Below the pieces are notes generated by a model. The model was not told the origin of the DNA. It saw only the letters and a list, made by a program, of their open reading frames with translations, and searched no databases. Shown here one piece after another: positions 51,897 to 56,165 of a stretch of DNA of 64,000 nucleotides (its first letter is position 1; every line of letters starts with the position of its first letter). This DNA is from a bacterium (GTDB taxonomy: Bacteria; Patescibacteriota; Minisyncoccia; Phycocordibacterales; UBA9973), in the NCBI GenBank assembly GCA_037130655.1, contig JBAXSP010000002.1, positions 77,125 through 141,124 of the forward strand, written 5' to 3'. A program made the position numbers and the translations under genes.

Positions 51897-52238
51897 CTAA
51901 TTTGTTGTTTCTCGTTGATACTTGATGTATTGATTAACATCAACACCACTTCCTTCCGGTGACTTGAAACTAAATGAACTAGCAATGAAGTAAATAATTC
52001 CCCAAATACCGAGCATAATAGTTAAGCCGACGAGCCCCCAGATAATGTGATCTTTTCCTTTCTTGCGTGCATCACTTCCATCTTTTCCTCTCATGTATTC
52101 CATTACTCCCCAAATAAAAATTAGGAACGCAATAGTAAACAAAAGATTAATCGCTGGATTGACGATATATTTGAGCAAATTGTTGTACAAAGACTCAAAT
52201 GTCGCAGCGTGAGCAATCAAAGGAAGAAACATAAACAA
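51897..52238 (-). CDS. small 2-TM pilin-like protein, paralog 1 (possible TrbC/VirB2-type)
   Basis: Shared architecture: hydrophobic helix (AFLIFIWGVMEYM), K/R/D-rich loop, second helix (IIWGLVGLTIMLGIWGII). Confidence 0.5.
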   Translation of the reverse strand: MFMFLPLIAHAATFESLYNNLLKYIVNPAINLLFTIAFLIFIWGVMEYMRGKDGSDARKKGKDHIIWGLVGLTIMLGIWGIIYFIASSFSFKSPEGSGVDVNQYIKYQRETTN

Positions 52239-52241
52239 AGA

Positions 52242-52583
52242 TTATCGACAAACAGTAACCAATTTTCCATTAATGTTAACTTGTTGAGGAAACATTCCTG
52301 GTGGACAAGTTTGTTGTTGAGTTGTTGTATTAGTTGCACCTGTAACGTTTTGCAAAATACGAACAATTCCCCATGCAGATGACATTACGAACAACGCAAT
52401 GATTCCATACATAAGTTTACCCTTCCATTCTTTTTTCTTATCATCTGATTTTGCAGTGATAAATTCGTATACACTATACAAAAAGTATAGGAAGGCAACA
52501 GCCATCATTATTTGTATACCAAGCTGAATGAGTCCCAAAAATCCTGTTCCAGCACTTTCTATATAACCAAGGTTTGGAGCCAT
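52242..52583 (-). CDS. small 2-TM pilin-like protein, paralog 2
   Basis: AFLYFLYSVYEFI, then KSDDKKKEWKGK, then LMYGIIALFVMSSAWGIV. Confidence 0.5.
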   Translation of the reverse strand: MAPNLGYIESAGTGFLGLIQLGIQIMMAVAFLYFLYSVYEFITAKSDDKKKEWKGKLMYGIIALFVMSSAWGIVRILQNVTGATNTTTQQQTCPPGMFPQQVNINGKLVTVCR

Positions 52584-52709
52584 AAATTAAAATAAATTAA
52601 ACTAATATATAAACGACCGATGGTACCCCACCGAAACGTACCTTTATTTTACCATACAAAAGACCTTGCGATGCAAGCAAGGTCTGTGAATAGAGTCTGT
52701 TTTGTCTGT

Positions 52710-53090
52710 TTATTTGATGTTTCGAATCTGTGGAATAAACGATCCACCAAGCCCGAGGGTACTCGAAAGAATTTTGACAATCCCCCACACAGACACCATG
52801 ATAAACAACGCAATAATACTAATCATGAGTGTCTTTTGAGCATCTTTGCGTTCTTTTTCATTGGCAGCCTTACGCATTGTTTCGATAATATTCCAAATGA
52901 AATAGAGAAAAGCTACTCCAAACAAAATTGGAATAATGTAACTCCCAATAAAACAAAGAAATACAGCGAGTAATTCACCGATATTGGCAAAACTAGTTGG
53001 GCAAAAACTACTCGAAGCAGTACTGCTTGCTTGAGCAAAGAGTCCGACAGGAAGCAGTATATTGAAAAGGATTAAAAATGTTTTTTTCAT
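52710..53090 (-). CDS. small 2-TM pilin-like protein, paralog 3 (with signal peptide)
   Basis: Signal peptide. Then AFLYFIWNIIETMRKA, then NEKERKDAQK, then LMISIIALFIMVSVWGIV. Confidence 0.5.
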   Translation of the reverse strand: MKKTFLILFNILLPVGLFAQASSTASSSFCPTSFANIGELLAVFLCFIGSYIIPILFGVAFLYFIWNIIETMRKAANEKERKDAQKTLMISIIALFIMVSVWGIVKILSSTLGLGGSFIPQIRNIK

Positions 53091-53532: not shown

Positions 53533-53555
53533 ATATTTATTATACAACATATCTA

Positions 53556-54851
53556 TTAAAAGAAGGTGTCGAATGACGGCTTTTCTCCGGCAAACATGAC
53601 AATAATCGTCTTTACAATCACCCACGCACAAAGTGCAACTACATACCCGATAATTAATGCCTTTAATGTATCTTTTGCTTTTCCTCGAGCTTTAACATCC
53701 CCGCCTGAGTTGATAAACACCCAGCCGACATAGAACAAGCCAAACATAAACATCAAAAATGCAACCTTGGTCAAAAGAAGCTTGATCACATTTTGAAGCA
53801 AGAGCATTGCTGATCCAAAGGTACAGGGCACTTTGACTCCGTCACAGACAATCAAAAGCTCACTAATCGATTGACTACTGGTGAGATTTTTTCCCAACGC
53901 AGTACTTGTGGCTAGTCCTGACGCTTCTTTGCCTGTATAATCAACAACTGGTTTTGTTGTTGAAGCAAATGGATTTGTGGTGACACCAAGCATTGGAATA
54001 TTTGGCACAAAGTCATTACTTTGGAAATACACCATACCTGTTTGTGCACCAATAATTTCAATCATTGCCACACACTGCCCCACAATATCTGTGCAGTATT
54101 TTGTGTAATCAGTTTGATTAATCGGATTACTCATCCCGCTAATTTGTTGAATATTCGGCAGTCCAAAGAATTGTGGAGTAGTAACTTTACCATTTGCATC
54201 TACAGCAAGTAATTCGATTTTACTTGCTTCACTTTTTTTATCAAACATTGCTGTTGCAGAACGTGCACCGAGCACCAATTGTGTATCTTTTCCTTTTGGA
54301 ACAAAAAGATTTCCACGAAAATCAACCTTCAATTGCACTGCCCCACCAGATAACACCTGACTTGAATCAAACATCGCAAAATCTCCATATGCGCCATTCC
54401 ACAAGACACTTGGTATACATTGACCATAAGTACCTGAACAATTTTCATTTCTTTTTTGAAGTTCTGCTTGCAGTTGCGCTATTTGGTCTCCCAATTGCTG
54501 TGTTGAACTTGCTTTGGTAGTTGTTTGAGCTTGCATCAGCTGTAGCTGGAGTTGATTCAATTGTTGCTGAAGTTGTGCCGGAGTAAAATTCGACAAAGAA
54601 ACACCTGTTTTGAATTGCAGTGCTTGAGATAATTGTTGCATTTGCAACTGATTGAGCTGTTGTTGTAATTGCGCAACTTGCGCTGTTTTATTTGCTTGTT
54701 GTGCTTGTGCAATCTGTTGTTGGAGTTGGGTTATTTGAGCTTGTAATTGAGCGGGAGTAACATTTTGCGCTTGTACGGTAAACAGTAGTGCAGAAAAAGC
54801 AATACTCACCACAAGAAGAACATAAATAGCTTTGTTGATACTTTTTTTCAT
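53556..54851 (-). CDS. secreted Q-rich coiled-coil protein with a C-terminal 2-TM pilin-like domain (paralog 5)
   Basis: Signal peptide. Long QLQQQ... heptad region. C-terminus VAFLMFMFGLFYVGWVFI, then GGDVKARGKAKD, then LKALIIGYVVALCAWVIV matches paralogs 1-4. Confidence 0.5.
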   Translation of the reverse strand: MKKSINKAIYVLLVVSIAFSALLFTVQAQNVTPAQLQAQITQLQQQIAQAQQANKTAQVAQLQQQLNQLQMQQLSQALQFKTGVSLSNFTPAQLQQQLNQLQLQLMQAQTTTKASSTQQLGDQIAQLQAELQKRNENCSGTYGQCIPSVLWNGAYGDFAMFDSSQVLSGGAVQLKVDFRGNLFVPKGKDTQLVLGARSATAMFDKKSEASKIELLAVDANGKVTTPQFFGLPNIQQISGMSNPINQTDYTKYCTDIVGQCVAMIEIIGAQTGMVYFQSNDFVPNIPMLGVTTNPFASTTKPVVDYTGKEASGLATSTALGKNLTSSQSISELLIVCDGVKVPCTFGSAMLLLQNVIKLLLTKVAFLMFMFGLFYVGWVFINSGGDVKARGKAKDTLKALIIGYVVALCAWVIVKTIIVMFAGEKPSFDTFF

Positions 54852-54854
54852 AAA

Positions 54855-56165
54855 TTAATTTGATGCACCGAGTAATCCTTGTGCACGGATCACTGCTTCA
54901 CTGATTTTCATCCGACCAGTAATTACTCCATTTATCATATCACGAAAGACCGCATCACTTTGTGCAGGACTTGGATCAAACCAAGTCTTTGATATCAATG
55001 CTTGTTCGTAAAAGAGTGTTGTATACCCTTTGACGTCTGACGTATCCGCAATAACACTGCGGTGCACCGGAGAGAGTGTATAGATACTGTCGAGCAATTT
55101 TGTTGTATCAGGGTCAGCAAAAAGTGTCATCACTTTTGTTGCACCTGTTGGATTGATGGCATTTTTGACCTGTGACATAACATACAAACGCGCAAAGGTT
55201 GTTTTGGTTCCAGTGTTTTTGATTTGTGGCATCATTGTTGGTGCAAAATTGAGATTTGGATTTCGTTCTCGTAAATTGAGTAGCTCACTTGCAAAACCAA
55301 CATAGTACGCCAAATCTCCTGCAAGAAATGCTTCTCGAGAGTTCGCCAATGAACGATTCCATGTATATAGATCGTCATACGGATTTGCGAAGCGTGTATA
55401 AAAAGAAATAATCGATTCGGCAATTGATGCACCATTTGCGTCAGTTGCATACGCCAAATTTGGTTTGTATGTGTATCCATCATTTGAAACAACTCGTTCG
55501 ACAATCGGATTTCCTGCTTGCAATAGTAGTGTCGAAATCAATGCTTTTGCGTTTGAAACATTGTCATACAATCCGATACCGAAAGCCGCACGAGTGATTG
55601 TCGTACCAATTGTTTTGATTCTTATTTTTTCAACATATGAAGCTGCATCATCCCAATATTGTATTGGTTGCGCAAAACCAGCATCAGACAAAATATCTCG
55701 ATTGTAGTACAAAACAAGCGGATCACTTCCGACAGGAATACCGAGCAGTCCACCATTTGTAAGTAATCCTTCAGCAAGCTCTATATAGGTTTGCTTGAAA
55801 GCACTTTCTGGAAATGTCGCATATGGAACGGGGGTAATTCTCGATTCTAGTGTAGTCAAAATATCACTTGGAAACAAAATAACATCTGGCTGATTGTTGT
55901 CAGCCAAAGCCTCTGTCAACATATCTTTGAATTGGTCTGGTGCAATTTGTATATAACGCAATGTTAGTGTTTTGTCTTTTTTAGATAGAGCATCAGCGAT
56001 TTGACCAAAGTCACCTTGTGGCAATGTTCCCCAAACAACAACTGCACCTGTCTCGGGTGCTTTACTTGAACTACTTGGGCTCGGAATAAAACCAGAAAAC
56101 ATCATGACTGCTACAATCAATGCAACTCCGCAAACAATAGAAAGAATTATTTGAAAACGATTCAT
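54855..56165 (-). CDS. extracellular solute-binding protein (ABC-transporter SBP family 1-like)
   Basis: Signal anchor plus two-lobed SBP-like length and composition. No ABC permease or ATPase genes adjacent. Confidence 0.55.
   Translation of the reverse strand: MNRFQIILSIVCGVALIVAVMMFSGFIPSPSSSSKAPETGAVVVWGTLPQGDFGQIADALSKKDKTLTLRYIQIAPDQFKDMLTEALADNNQPDVILFPSDILTTLESRITPVPYATFPESAFKQTYIELAEGLLTNGGLLGIPVGSDPLVLYYNRDILSDAGFAQPIQYWDDAASYVEKIRIKTIGTTITRAAFGIGLYDNVSNAKALISTLLLQAGNPIVERVVSNDGYTYKPNLAYATDANGASIAESIISFYTRFANPYDDLYTWNRSLANSREAFLAGDLAYYVGFASELLNLRERNPNLNFAPTMMPQIKNTGTKTTFARLYVMSQVKNAINPTGATKVMTLFADPDTTKLLDSIYTLSPVHRSVIADTSDVKGYTTLFYEQALISKTWFDPSPAQSDAVFRDMINGVITGRMKISEAVIRAQGLLGASN

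Follow-up and report, generated by a model that had tools for sequence, protein, structure and literature searches.

Patescibacteria account for a large fraction of bacterial diversity, and those that have been cultured and studied depend on host cells, but how these bacteria attach to their hosts and take up material is largely unknown. Against this background, what is the role of a chromosomal locus in which five tandem genes for pilin-like proteins of the T4SS (type IV secretion system) class lie immediately behind a gene for a solute-binding protein (SBP)? We addressed this question for the locus at 51897-56691 of a 64-kb stretch of chromosomal DNA (hereafter, the window) from a Patescibacteria host of the Paceibacteria/Parcubacteria type. 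A tandem array of pilin paralogues in a genome of the candidate phyla radiation (CPR) is already known. What appears to be new is a VirB4-distal operon that combines such an array with a MalE-like SBP and a methyltransferase, and that comprises five position-specific paralogues, the first of them with a cassette-like ectodomain. From topology, domain content and gene order, we propose with moderate confidence that the operon encodes a heteromeric surface structure of the T4SS-pilin type, in which one subunit is an exchangeable adhesin and a glycan-binding protein is its partner at the contact with the host. The locus provides a testable handle on the barely cultured class Paceibacteria.

Organization of the operon

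Seven closely packed minus-strand genes were called as open reading frames (ORFs) between 51897 and 56691, in the order methyltransferase, SBP, g5, g4, g3, g2 and g1. The pilin array, g5 to g1 (51897-54851), constitutes the downstream part of the operon, behind the methyltransferase and the MalE-like SBP. The features are, in the direction of transcription:

56737-56769 (unstranded): palindromic terminator-like hairpin separating gyrA from the methyltransferase gene; its 15-bp stem is flanked by T-runs on either side; upstream operon boundary
56167-56691 (-): class I S-adenosylmethionine-dependent methyltransferase, 174 aa, the operon's first gene; PF13847 and PF13649; ends 1 nt before the SBP start
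54855-56165 (-): MalE-like (family 1) SBP, 436 aa, membrane-tethered; N-terminal transmembrane (TM) helix, Ser/Pro-rich linker, two-lobe fold
53556-54851 (-): g5, position-1 pilin, 431 aa; PF18895 at 34.1 bits, residues 356-416
53104-53532 (-): g4, pilin at position 2, 142 aa when counted from the ATG at 53532; signal peptide, low-complexity segment of about 40 aa, TrbC-like module
52710-53090 (-): g3, middle-position pilin, 126 aa; signal peptide, leader plus two TM segments; PF18895 at 32.5 bits
52661-52685 (-): terminator- or attenuator-like hairpin inside the g3-g2 gap, GC-rich AGACCTTGC...GCAAGGTCT, followed by TTTTGT
52242-52583 (-): g2, penultimate-position pilin, 113 aa, without a leader in this lineage; PF18895 at 36.1 bits
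51897-52238 (-): g1, last-position pilin, 113 aa from a TTG or 111 aa from the ATG at 52232; PF18895 at 33.1 bits
51857-51884 (unstranded): bidirectional terminator-like hairpin separating g1 from a convergent 204-aa gene, 12-bp stem with 7 GC pairs; downstream operon boundary

The intergenic gaps amount to 1 nt between the methyltransferase and SBP genes, 3 nt between SBP and g5, 23 nt between g5 and g4, 13 nt between g4 and g3, and 3 nt between g2 and g1. The widest gap, 126 nt between g3 and g2, houses the internal hairpin, and most related arrays likewise have a gap of about 85-185 nt ahead of their penultimate gene. The mechanically called ORF of g4 (53104-53631) overlaps g5; orthologues are called at 141-142 aa, and the ATG at 53532, 23 nt past the g5 stop, is the most likely true start and gives a protein of 142 aa. 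In a comparison with the syntenic relative L001, the ratio of non-synonymous to synonymous substitution rates (dN/dS) was 0.03-0.23 across all eight operon genes compared, and these are therefore real coding genes.

Family assignment of the five paralogues

Do these five genes encode related proteins, and to which family do they belong? An earlier sequence-only reading of this DNA had proposed that five consecutive minus-strand genes share a hydrophobic two-helix module. BLASTP and hydropathy bear this out, the module common to g1-g5 being about 75 aa long. Pairwise BLASTP, run in a small local database with alignments over 58-80 residues, connected g2 with g3 (39% identity, E 3e-14), g1 with g3 (34%, 2e-12) and g1 with g2 (29%, 6e-10), and more weakly g1 with g5 (31%, 6e-5) and g3 with g4 (21%, 4e-4); across paralogues, identity ranges from 17 to 39%. 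Hydropathy revealed two TM-length segments per module, and an additional N-terminal hydrophobic leader in g3, g4 and g5 only, g1 and g2 having none, which agrees with the three signal peptides proposed before. Of the short charged loop ascribed to all five modules, the part that stands is that of g1, g3 and g5: loops were extracted there only, and these are K/R-rich, with 4-6 K+R.

The proposal that the proteins resemble T4SS pilins came with a suggested HMMER comparison against the T4SS_pilin (PF18895) and TrbC/VirB2 (PF04956) families, which we ran. It holds for the first family: g1, g2, g3 and g5, hence four of the five, exceed the PF18895 gathering score of 26.6 bits with the scores listed above. 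g4 remains under it at 18.3 bits, yet is the positional orthologue of genes that match PF18895 and/or TrbC. It does not hold for the second, whose gathering score of 27.9 bits is reached by no pilin (best g4, 26.9 bits; g1, 14.3 bits). Hydropathy, alignment and the AlphaFold2 (AF2) model of g5 agree on two hydrophobic helices joined by a short polar or basic loop within about 70 residues, as expected for PF18895. Moreover, the five consecutive genes of low mutual identity form an array as defined in PMC12102498, namely at least two pilin genes in tandem or one gene apart, with low mutual identity. NCBIfam returned sub-threshold matches to NF045849, 'pilin-like conjugal transfer protein', and to TIGR03758, an integrative and conjugative element (ICE) protein family. 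Independent gene calls with precomputed Pfam assignments give the same layout in relatives, an SBP plus 5-6 PF18895 genes. An iterated hidden Markov model (HMM) of the module uncovered no module genes beyond g1-g5 in the window, and tblastn of g4 against 72,556 plasmids gave no match. Because no bridge to experimentally characterised pilins was obtained, the genes are filed under PF18895 and not PF04956; the sequences suggest a relation to TrbC/VirB2 at the superfamily level only, and we do not claim membership of that family.

Small two-TM proteins are easily mis-assigned, and the weak Pfam side-matches of these genes are all to generic TM families. Could they instead belong to the holins, to the bacteriocin-immunity proteins or to some other unrelated group of small membrane proteins, the outcome that had been named as refuting the pilin proposal? 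No holin or immunity family was found in Pfam, NCBIfam or PHROGs, the PF18895 matches above the gathering score are consistent, and the window Pfam scans detected no phage or bacteriocin genes near the array, making this explanation extremely unlikely.

Arrays of this kind in CPR genomes had been mentioned in the sequence-only reading and are indeed published (PMC12102498, PMC10633639 and PMC12857230). According to PMC12102498 (Quinonero-Coronel et al. 2025), 3,035 Patescibacteria genomes were scanned with PF18895, PF04956 and other profiles, and 441 VirB2 arrays of 2-11 genes were identified in 383 assemblies, with a mean identity of 25% and a high abundance in Microgenomatia and Saccharimonadia. 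Southlakia epibionticum ML1 carries an essential array of six divergent pilins inside its T4SS cluster (Wang et al. 2023, PMC10633639; review PMC12857230).

Each pilin keeps its position across related loci

We surveyed related loci from both sides of the SBP-pilin junction. On the SBP side, an alignment of 20 SBP family members yielded 80 loci from species-representative genomes, with record titles that include Kaiser-, Nomura-, Taylor-, Zambryski- and Wolfebacteria and 'Paceibacterota'. About 30 of these 80 are Third Party Annotation (TPA) assemblies titled 'uncultured Candidatus Saccharibacteria'; this label is not confirmed and may be generic, because their GyrA-methyltransferase-SBP-pilin synteny equals that of the loci titled Paceibacterota or Parcubacteria. 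The SBP family is widespread in metagenome-assembled genomes of Parcubacteria/Paceibacteria at about 35% identity, the best identity in the genome-contig scan being 37-38%. Same-strand pilin-module ORFs, 1-8 in number, follow the SBP in 75 of the 75 genome loci that have sequence there, the remaining five contigs of the 80 ending right after the SBP. The first pilin ORF is mostly located 30 nt or less from the SBP, and in every case within about 600 nt; complete arrays mostly contain 5-7 genes. On the pilin side, position-2 modules yielded 80 metagenome loci. In 56 of these the upstream sequence extends over at least 1.3 kb, and 55 of the 56 have the SBP immediately ahead of the pilins (L158 carries the SBP although it was flagged by a script threshold). 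The SBP-pilin operon is thus conserved across about 130 related loci. Median gaps across loci are 1 nt between methyltransferase and SBP, 2 nt between SBP and first pilin, and 145 nt between gyrA and methyltransferase.

We then compared modules by best match in 56 complete arrays outside the window's own lineage. g5 corresponded to the first gene in 41 of the 56, g4 to the second in 48, g2 to the penultimate in 36 and g1 to the last in 41; g3 represents a middle class whose copy number varies between loci. The hydrophobic leader follows position as well: first and second genes have it in 97-98% of cases, middle and penultimate genes in about 75%, and last genes in 7%. Instead of a leader, g1 displays a very short N-terminus, MFMFLPLIAHA/A (52205-52238). 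Last-position pilins of the window and of L025, L050 and L069 share this very short N-terminus, of the form M-x-F-x-x-F-P-x-A-(E/H)-A, which reads ..FPVAEA/S in those other than the window's. The segment resembles a signal-peptide cleavage region devoid of n- and h-regions; possibly it serves as a distinct processing signal.

Between the window and L001, identity is 98% for GyrA and 90% for SBP, against 84% for g1, 65% for g4 and about 56-61% for g5 (56% by BLASTP). Hence, the pilins diverge faster than housekeeping and neighbouring genes. Their dN/dS values are 0.1-0.23, and all five are under purifying selection. Taken together, these observations speak for a long-established, fixed set of subunits that are not interchangeable, and the sequence comparisons show the five pilins to be ancient paralogues that keep their array positions, and not recent copies.

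Are the paralogues instead interchangeable major pilins serving antigenic or host-range variation, by analogy with Bartonella and Anaplasma? This possibility is raised in PMC12102498, and the low paralogue identity (17-39%) and the fast divergence of the pilins would suit it. By contrast, every paralogue can be paired with a positional orthologue in distant lineages, the type and length of the leader depend on position, the dN/dS values are accompanied by no indication of a recent duplication or of gene conversion, and only the position-1 ectodomain, described below, is cassette-like. Positional orthology and purifying selection led us to reject the antigenic-variation reading, which is very unlikely.

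The first pilin carries a lineage-specific ectodomain

The 431-aa g5 product differs from the other four by a long N-terminal part. The sequence-only reading had described it as a secreted Q-rich coil with the module at its C-terminus, and our analysis led to the same architecture (all minus strand):

54768-54851 (-): g5 signal peptide, residues 1-28
54447-54767 (-): g5 Q-rich helical stalk, residues 29-135
53823-54446 (-): g5 orphan Cys-containing ectodomain, residues 136-343
53559-53822 (-): g5 C-terminal T4SS_pilin module, residues 344-431

The stalk region (107 residues) consists of 35% Gln, with a heptad-like hydrophobic pattern in helical stretches of about 20 residues. No DNA tandem repeat was detected in the Q-rich region of the window's g5 with Tandem Repeats Finder (TRF). 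The following 208-residue region is rich in Gly, Ser, Val and Thr and contains three C-x6-C pairs (138/145, 253/260 and 336/343); in an exhaustive phmmer search of 1.84 billion representatives, this central domain had no homologue beyond its own lineage. In the AF2 model, confidence is restricted to the helical hairpin at 345-420, with helices 345-381 and 386-420 at a pLDDT (predicted local distance difference test) of 63-78. Relatives' g5 proteins measure 431, 432 and 503 aa, and the Q-rich part differs by 72 residues between the window and L001 (7960-9471).

Is a large first pilin a peculiarity of this lineage? The first pilin reaches at least 250 aa in 13 of 60 complete arrays, with the module always C-terminal, behind a Cys...Cys loop. 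The N-terminal part of these long first pilins varies by lineage:

Window's lineage: Q-rich helical stalk plus orphan domain
L039, L041: IPT/TIG repeats
L036, L043, L077, L080: fn3-like or purple-acid-phosphatase-N-like domains
L096 (846 aa): four InlB B-repeats

The corresponding parts of L010, L011 and L144 matched no assigned domain. The last pilin sometimes bears a C-terminal extension of 240-550 aa (L025, L050, L069, L151). To judge from the arrays compared, the position-1 ectodomain alone behaves as a variable cassette. In the VirB2/TraA pili (F and T pili), both termini are exposed on the filament's outer face and the loop is oriented toward the lumen or cytoplasm; N- and C-terminal extensions of the pilins studied here would therefore be displayed outward, as is required of a subunit that bears an adhesin.

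A conserved SBP accompanies the array

The sequence-only reading had treated the SBP as a mere neighbour of the pilin genes. This does not fit the survey, in which it proved to be the array's most conserved partner. What kind of SBP is it? It matches PF13416 (2.8e-16, 60.6 bits) and PF01547 (1.1e-12, 49 bits), both above the gathering score, and hydropathy places a TM segment at residues 1-30. The AF2 model (pLDDT 88) shows a two-lobe periplasmic-binding fold, for which Foldseek retrieved maltodextrin, mannan, sucrose and cello-oligosaccharide SBPs (TM score 0.65-0.77, E about 1e-22, 14-17% identity); a profile search of PDB sequences led to sugar SBPs as well. With a dN/dS of 0.064 relative to L001, the SBP is under stronger constraint than any other protein of the operon. 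No ATP-binding cassette (ABC) permease of the BPD_transp_1 type is encoded in the window or in the conserved flanks, and the window's only ABC ATPase (15668-17140) is a soluble, two-domain, ABC-F-like protein. In L020, the SBP ORF (9992-11674, 560 aa) runs in frame into a pilin module; this single case, topologically feasible, may be a natural SBP-pilin fusion or may reflect a lost stop codon.

The methyltransferase, a UbiE/ArsM-like class I enzyme whose gene is translationally coupled to that of the SBP, is directly upstream of the SBP in 72 loci, and its family is present in 74 of 82. Patescibacteria generally have no respiratory chain (PMC10633639). The enzyme could modify some component of the system.

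Does the proximity of these genes reflect a common function? The SBP could be the receptor of an ABC sugar importer with a distant permease, the methyltransferase a housekeeping enzyme, and the pilins a conventional array, the three having in common no more than a transcript and a frozen, highly syntenic stretch of chromosome. In support of this, the SBP is a standard MalE-like protein in fold and sequence, and the entire region is syntenic in the clade, in the order S1, Pth, MBL-fold protein, GyrA, methyltransferase, SBP, pilins, convergent variable gene, SPFH, RbfA and IF2. Adjacency is therefore weaker functional evidence than the counts imply. A stronger argument is provided by operon-level spacing and flanking terminators: the internal gaps of 1-3 nt compare with the median of 145 nt to gyrA, and a terminator is found on both flanks. 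In addition, the arrangement is kept in 75/75 and 55/56 loci at an SBP identity of about 35%, whereas the gene downstream of the array is not conserved; the first gene past the array is on the opposite strand in 26 of the 26 arrays tallied, and its family is variable. We consider adjacency without shared function improbable.

Is the array served by a T4SS?

If the pilins are assembled, which machinery does it? The window Pfam scan covered 39 proteins, from 30 ORFs of at least 300 aa and nine ORFs of 174-302 aa. None of them is VirB4, VirB6 or VirD4, so that the earlier statement that VirB4 and VirB6 are missing from the window holds for all ORFs scanned, and the array is not part of a virB3/virB4/virB6 cluster, none being present within the 64 kb. 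Likewise, no VirB4-like protein occurred among the conserved families or large ORFs checked up to 8-10 kb away in about 160 related loci, the large flank ORFs being GyrA, BipA, FtsH, a recombinase or enlarged pilins. T4SS genes are nonetheless present in the clade. In Table S1 of PMC12102498, VirB4 is listed for three of the four genomes carrying the same locus (Parcubacteria C7867-006, Taylorbacteria 12_FULL_43_20 and Zambryskibacteria 01_FULL_46_25) and is absent from the fourth, the draft Kaiserbacteria 01_FULL_54_13. Table S3 of the same paper reports small VirB2/PrgF-type clusters located hundreds of genes from the core, with alternate gene numbers and 'VirB4 proximity: No'. These are probably the same SBP-linked arrays, partly detected.

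In the structure that we favour, the pilin subunits would insert into the membrane via Sec/YidC, leaving the loop cytoplasmic and the two ends exposed outside. They would be drawn from this membrane pool by a VirB4/VirB3/VirB6-type T4SS encoded elsewhere in the genome, and would build up a short heteromeric filament or stub on the surface. The small leaderless subunits of the g1/g2 type, transcribed past the internal hairpin, would make up the bulk of it, and g5 would display its coiled-coil stalk and a disulfide-bonded head for contact with the host cell. The SBP would bind a host-derived oligosaccharide or surface glycan at the contact site, as a co-receptor or for the capture of released nutrients. 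The presence of T4SS in the clade, the essential array of S. epibionticum, the adhesin-type domains and the positive-inside loop support this scheme. If the SBP ligand were a host surface glycan or cell-wall fragment, T4SS-type pilins would be linked to host recognition or feeding. The locus also offers a fixed set of five pilin subunits, a candidate host-binding subunit with a lineage-swapped head, and a soluble, well-folded SBP for ligand screens.

Besides the clade-wide synteny, several observations weigh against this scheme. No filament is known to have been seen in any Paceibacteria, and polymerisation of these pilins is a prediction. The g5 ectodomain was modelled by AF2 from three sequences at a pLDDT of 40. 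A profile built from 60 modules did not find a solved T4SS pilin among PDB sequences, and HHalign of the 60 modules against five genuine VirB2 sequences gave an in-register, non-significant alignment (probability 5%, P = 0.0078); the five were taken from annotated Ti/Ri-type plasmids after a sequence match at 99% identity. Finally, the array never adjoins virB4 in about 130 loci, and the Paceibacteria core VirB4-TrsD-VirB3 cluster has its own adjacent PF18895 gene (PMC12102498, Table S3). The array may therefore not depend on the T4SS core.

These last points raise the question of whether the proteins form an envelope complex independent of any T4SS, in which co-opted pilin-like hairpins and the SBP constitute a docking platform or channel for the SBP ligand, with no pilus. 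Such a complex would account for the lack of VirB4-like proteins in the flanks checked and for the VirB2-like gene that the core clusters own. It would also suit an SBP that has no ABC permease or ATPase partner in the window or conserved flanks, as well as the strict two-way coupling of SBP and pilins with gaps of 1-3 nt, and the read-through of the L020 SBP into a pilin module. However, transport by two-TM proteins of the pilin family has no known precedent, the TIG, fn3 and InlB repeats of first subunits suit surface display better than a channel, and the L020 fusion stands alone. We regard this complex as possible, if unlikely. Equally doubtful is a broader version, a Paceibacteria organelle independent of the T4SS core, in which a heteromeric VirB2-derived assembly with an exchangeable adhesin and a glycan-binding protein would serve host recognition, nutrient capture or both, possibly replacing an ABC permease.

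Comparison with known systems

How does the proposed surface structure compare with known systems? The role of the Patescibacteria T4SS was described as 'completely unknown' in a 2024 perspective (PMC11665869). The published Patescibacteria VirB2 arrays resemble the present one in the PF18895 assignment, the tandem, divergent two-TM pilins (17-39% identity here, a mean of 25% there), the monoderm CPR host and the absence of a nearby relaxase. Those arrays are described in or near a virB4 cluster and mainly in Saccharimonadia and Microgenomatia, whereas the window's array is separated from any T4SS gene by at least 8 kb, and by 51 kb on one side, and is part of an operon with SBP and methyltransferase genes next to gyrA, an arrangement found in about 130 loci. 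The terms solute-binding, substrate-binding, ABC and gyrA do not occur in the main text of PMC12102498; for PMC10633639, searching by term returned no link between pilins and a binding protein, and full-text literature searches for the combination of SBP and pilin array gave nothing further. Neither position-specific orthology nor a swappable first-subunit ectodomain is described in the passages of PMC12102498 and PMC10633639 consulted.

With the TrbC/VirB2 pilins of the T-pilus and RP4, the proteins have in common their size, signal peptide, two hydrophobic helices and short charged loop. They differ in that they score below the PF04956 gathering threshold and give no significant profile-profile match to Agrobacterium VirB2, that no virB3 or virB4 is adjacent, that five distinct paralogues replace one major pilin, and that some carry large ectodomains. 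Type IV pili and type II secretion system (T2SS) pseudopili, with one major and about four minor pilins and a tip adhesin, provide an analogy only: here too, about five fixed paralogues include one with an adhesin-type domain, but fold and biogenesis are unrelated, and the locus has no class III signal peptide, PilD, PilB or PilC.

SBP-fold proteins have been tied to T4SS function before, PrgZ of pCF10 and ChvE-VirA of Agrobacterium both sensing an external ligand. PrgZ and ChvE belong to other SBP families and regulate a T4SS through signalling or import, whereas the present protein is a MalE-like family-1 SBP co-translated with pilins, with no sensor kinase or permease nearby.

Other genes in the window

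The remainder of the window encodes housekeeping and accessory proteins, among them GyrA, TopA, ClpB, IF2, SerRS, ParB, DprA, a clamp-loader subunit of DNA polymerase III (PF13177), Dus and MiaA (IPP transferase), together with an ABC-F-like ATPase, a reverse transcriptase, a LexA-Dcm fusion, a Fic protein and a beta-helix protein. The array's convergent neighbour (51223-51837, +) codes for a 204-aa membrane protein that matches closest relatives only; its counterpart in L170 encodes 385 aa with an SLT_3 lysozyme-like domain, PF18896. An SPFH/Band_7 protein (49738-51207 in the window) usually comes next after the convergent gene.

A 525-aa ORF at 2803-4380 (+) combines a LexA DNA-binding domain, Peptidase_S24 and a complete C5 cytosine DNA methylase, a domain content that identifies its predicted product as an unusual SOS-type repressor-methyltransferase fusion. 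The 734-aa reverse transcriptase at 22388-24592 (-) (RVT_1, 9e-17) adjoins tRNA-Gln (24709-24780) and could belong to a group II intron, a retron or an element of the diversity-generating retroelement (DGR) type. Within the first 14 kb, a 1034-aa right-handed beta-helix protein (8625-11729, -) and a Fic/DOC protein (6716-7861, -) are clustered with a gene at 12662-13291 (-) that gives a weak match to Vasohibin-like, transglutaminase-like proteases; surface or effector functions are possible for these three proteins.

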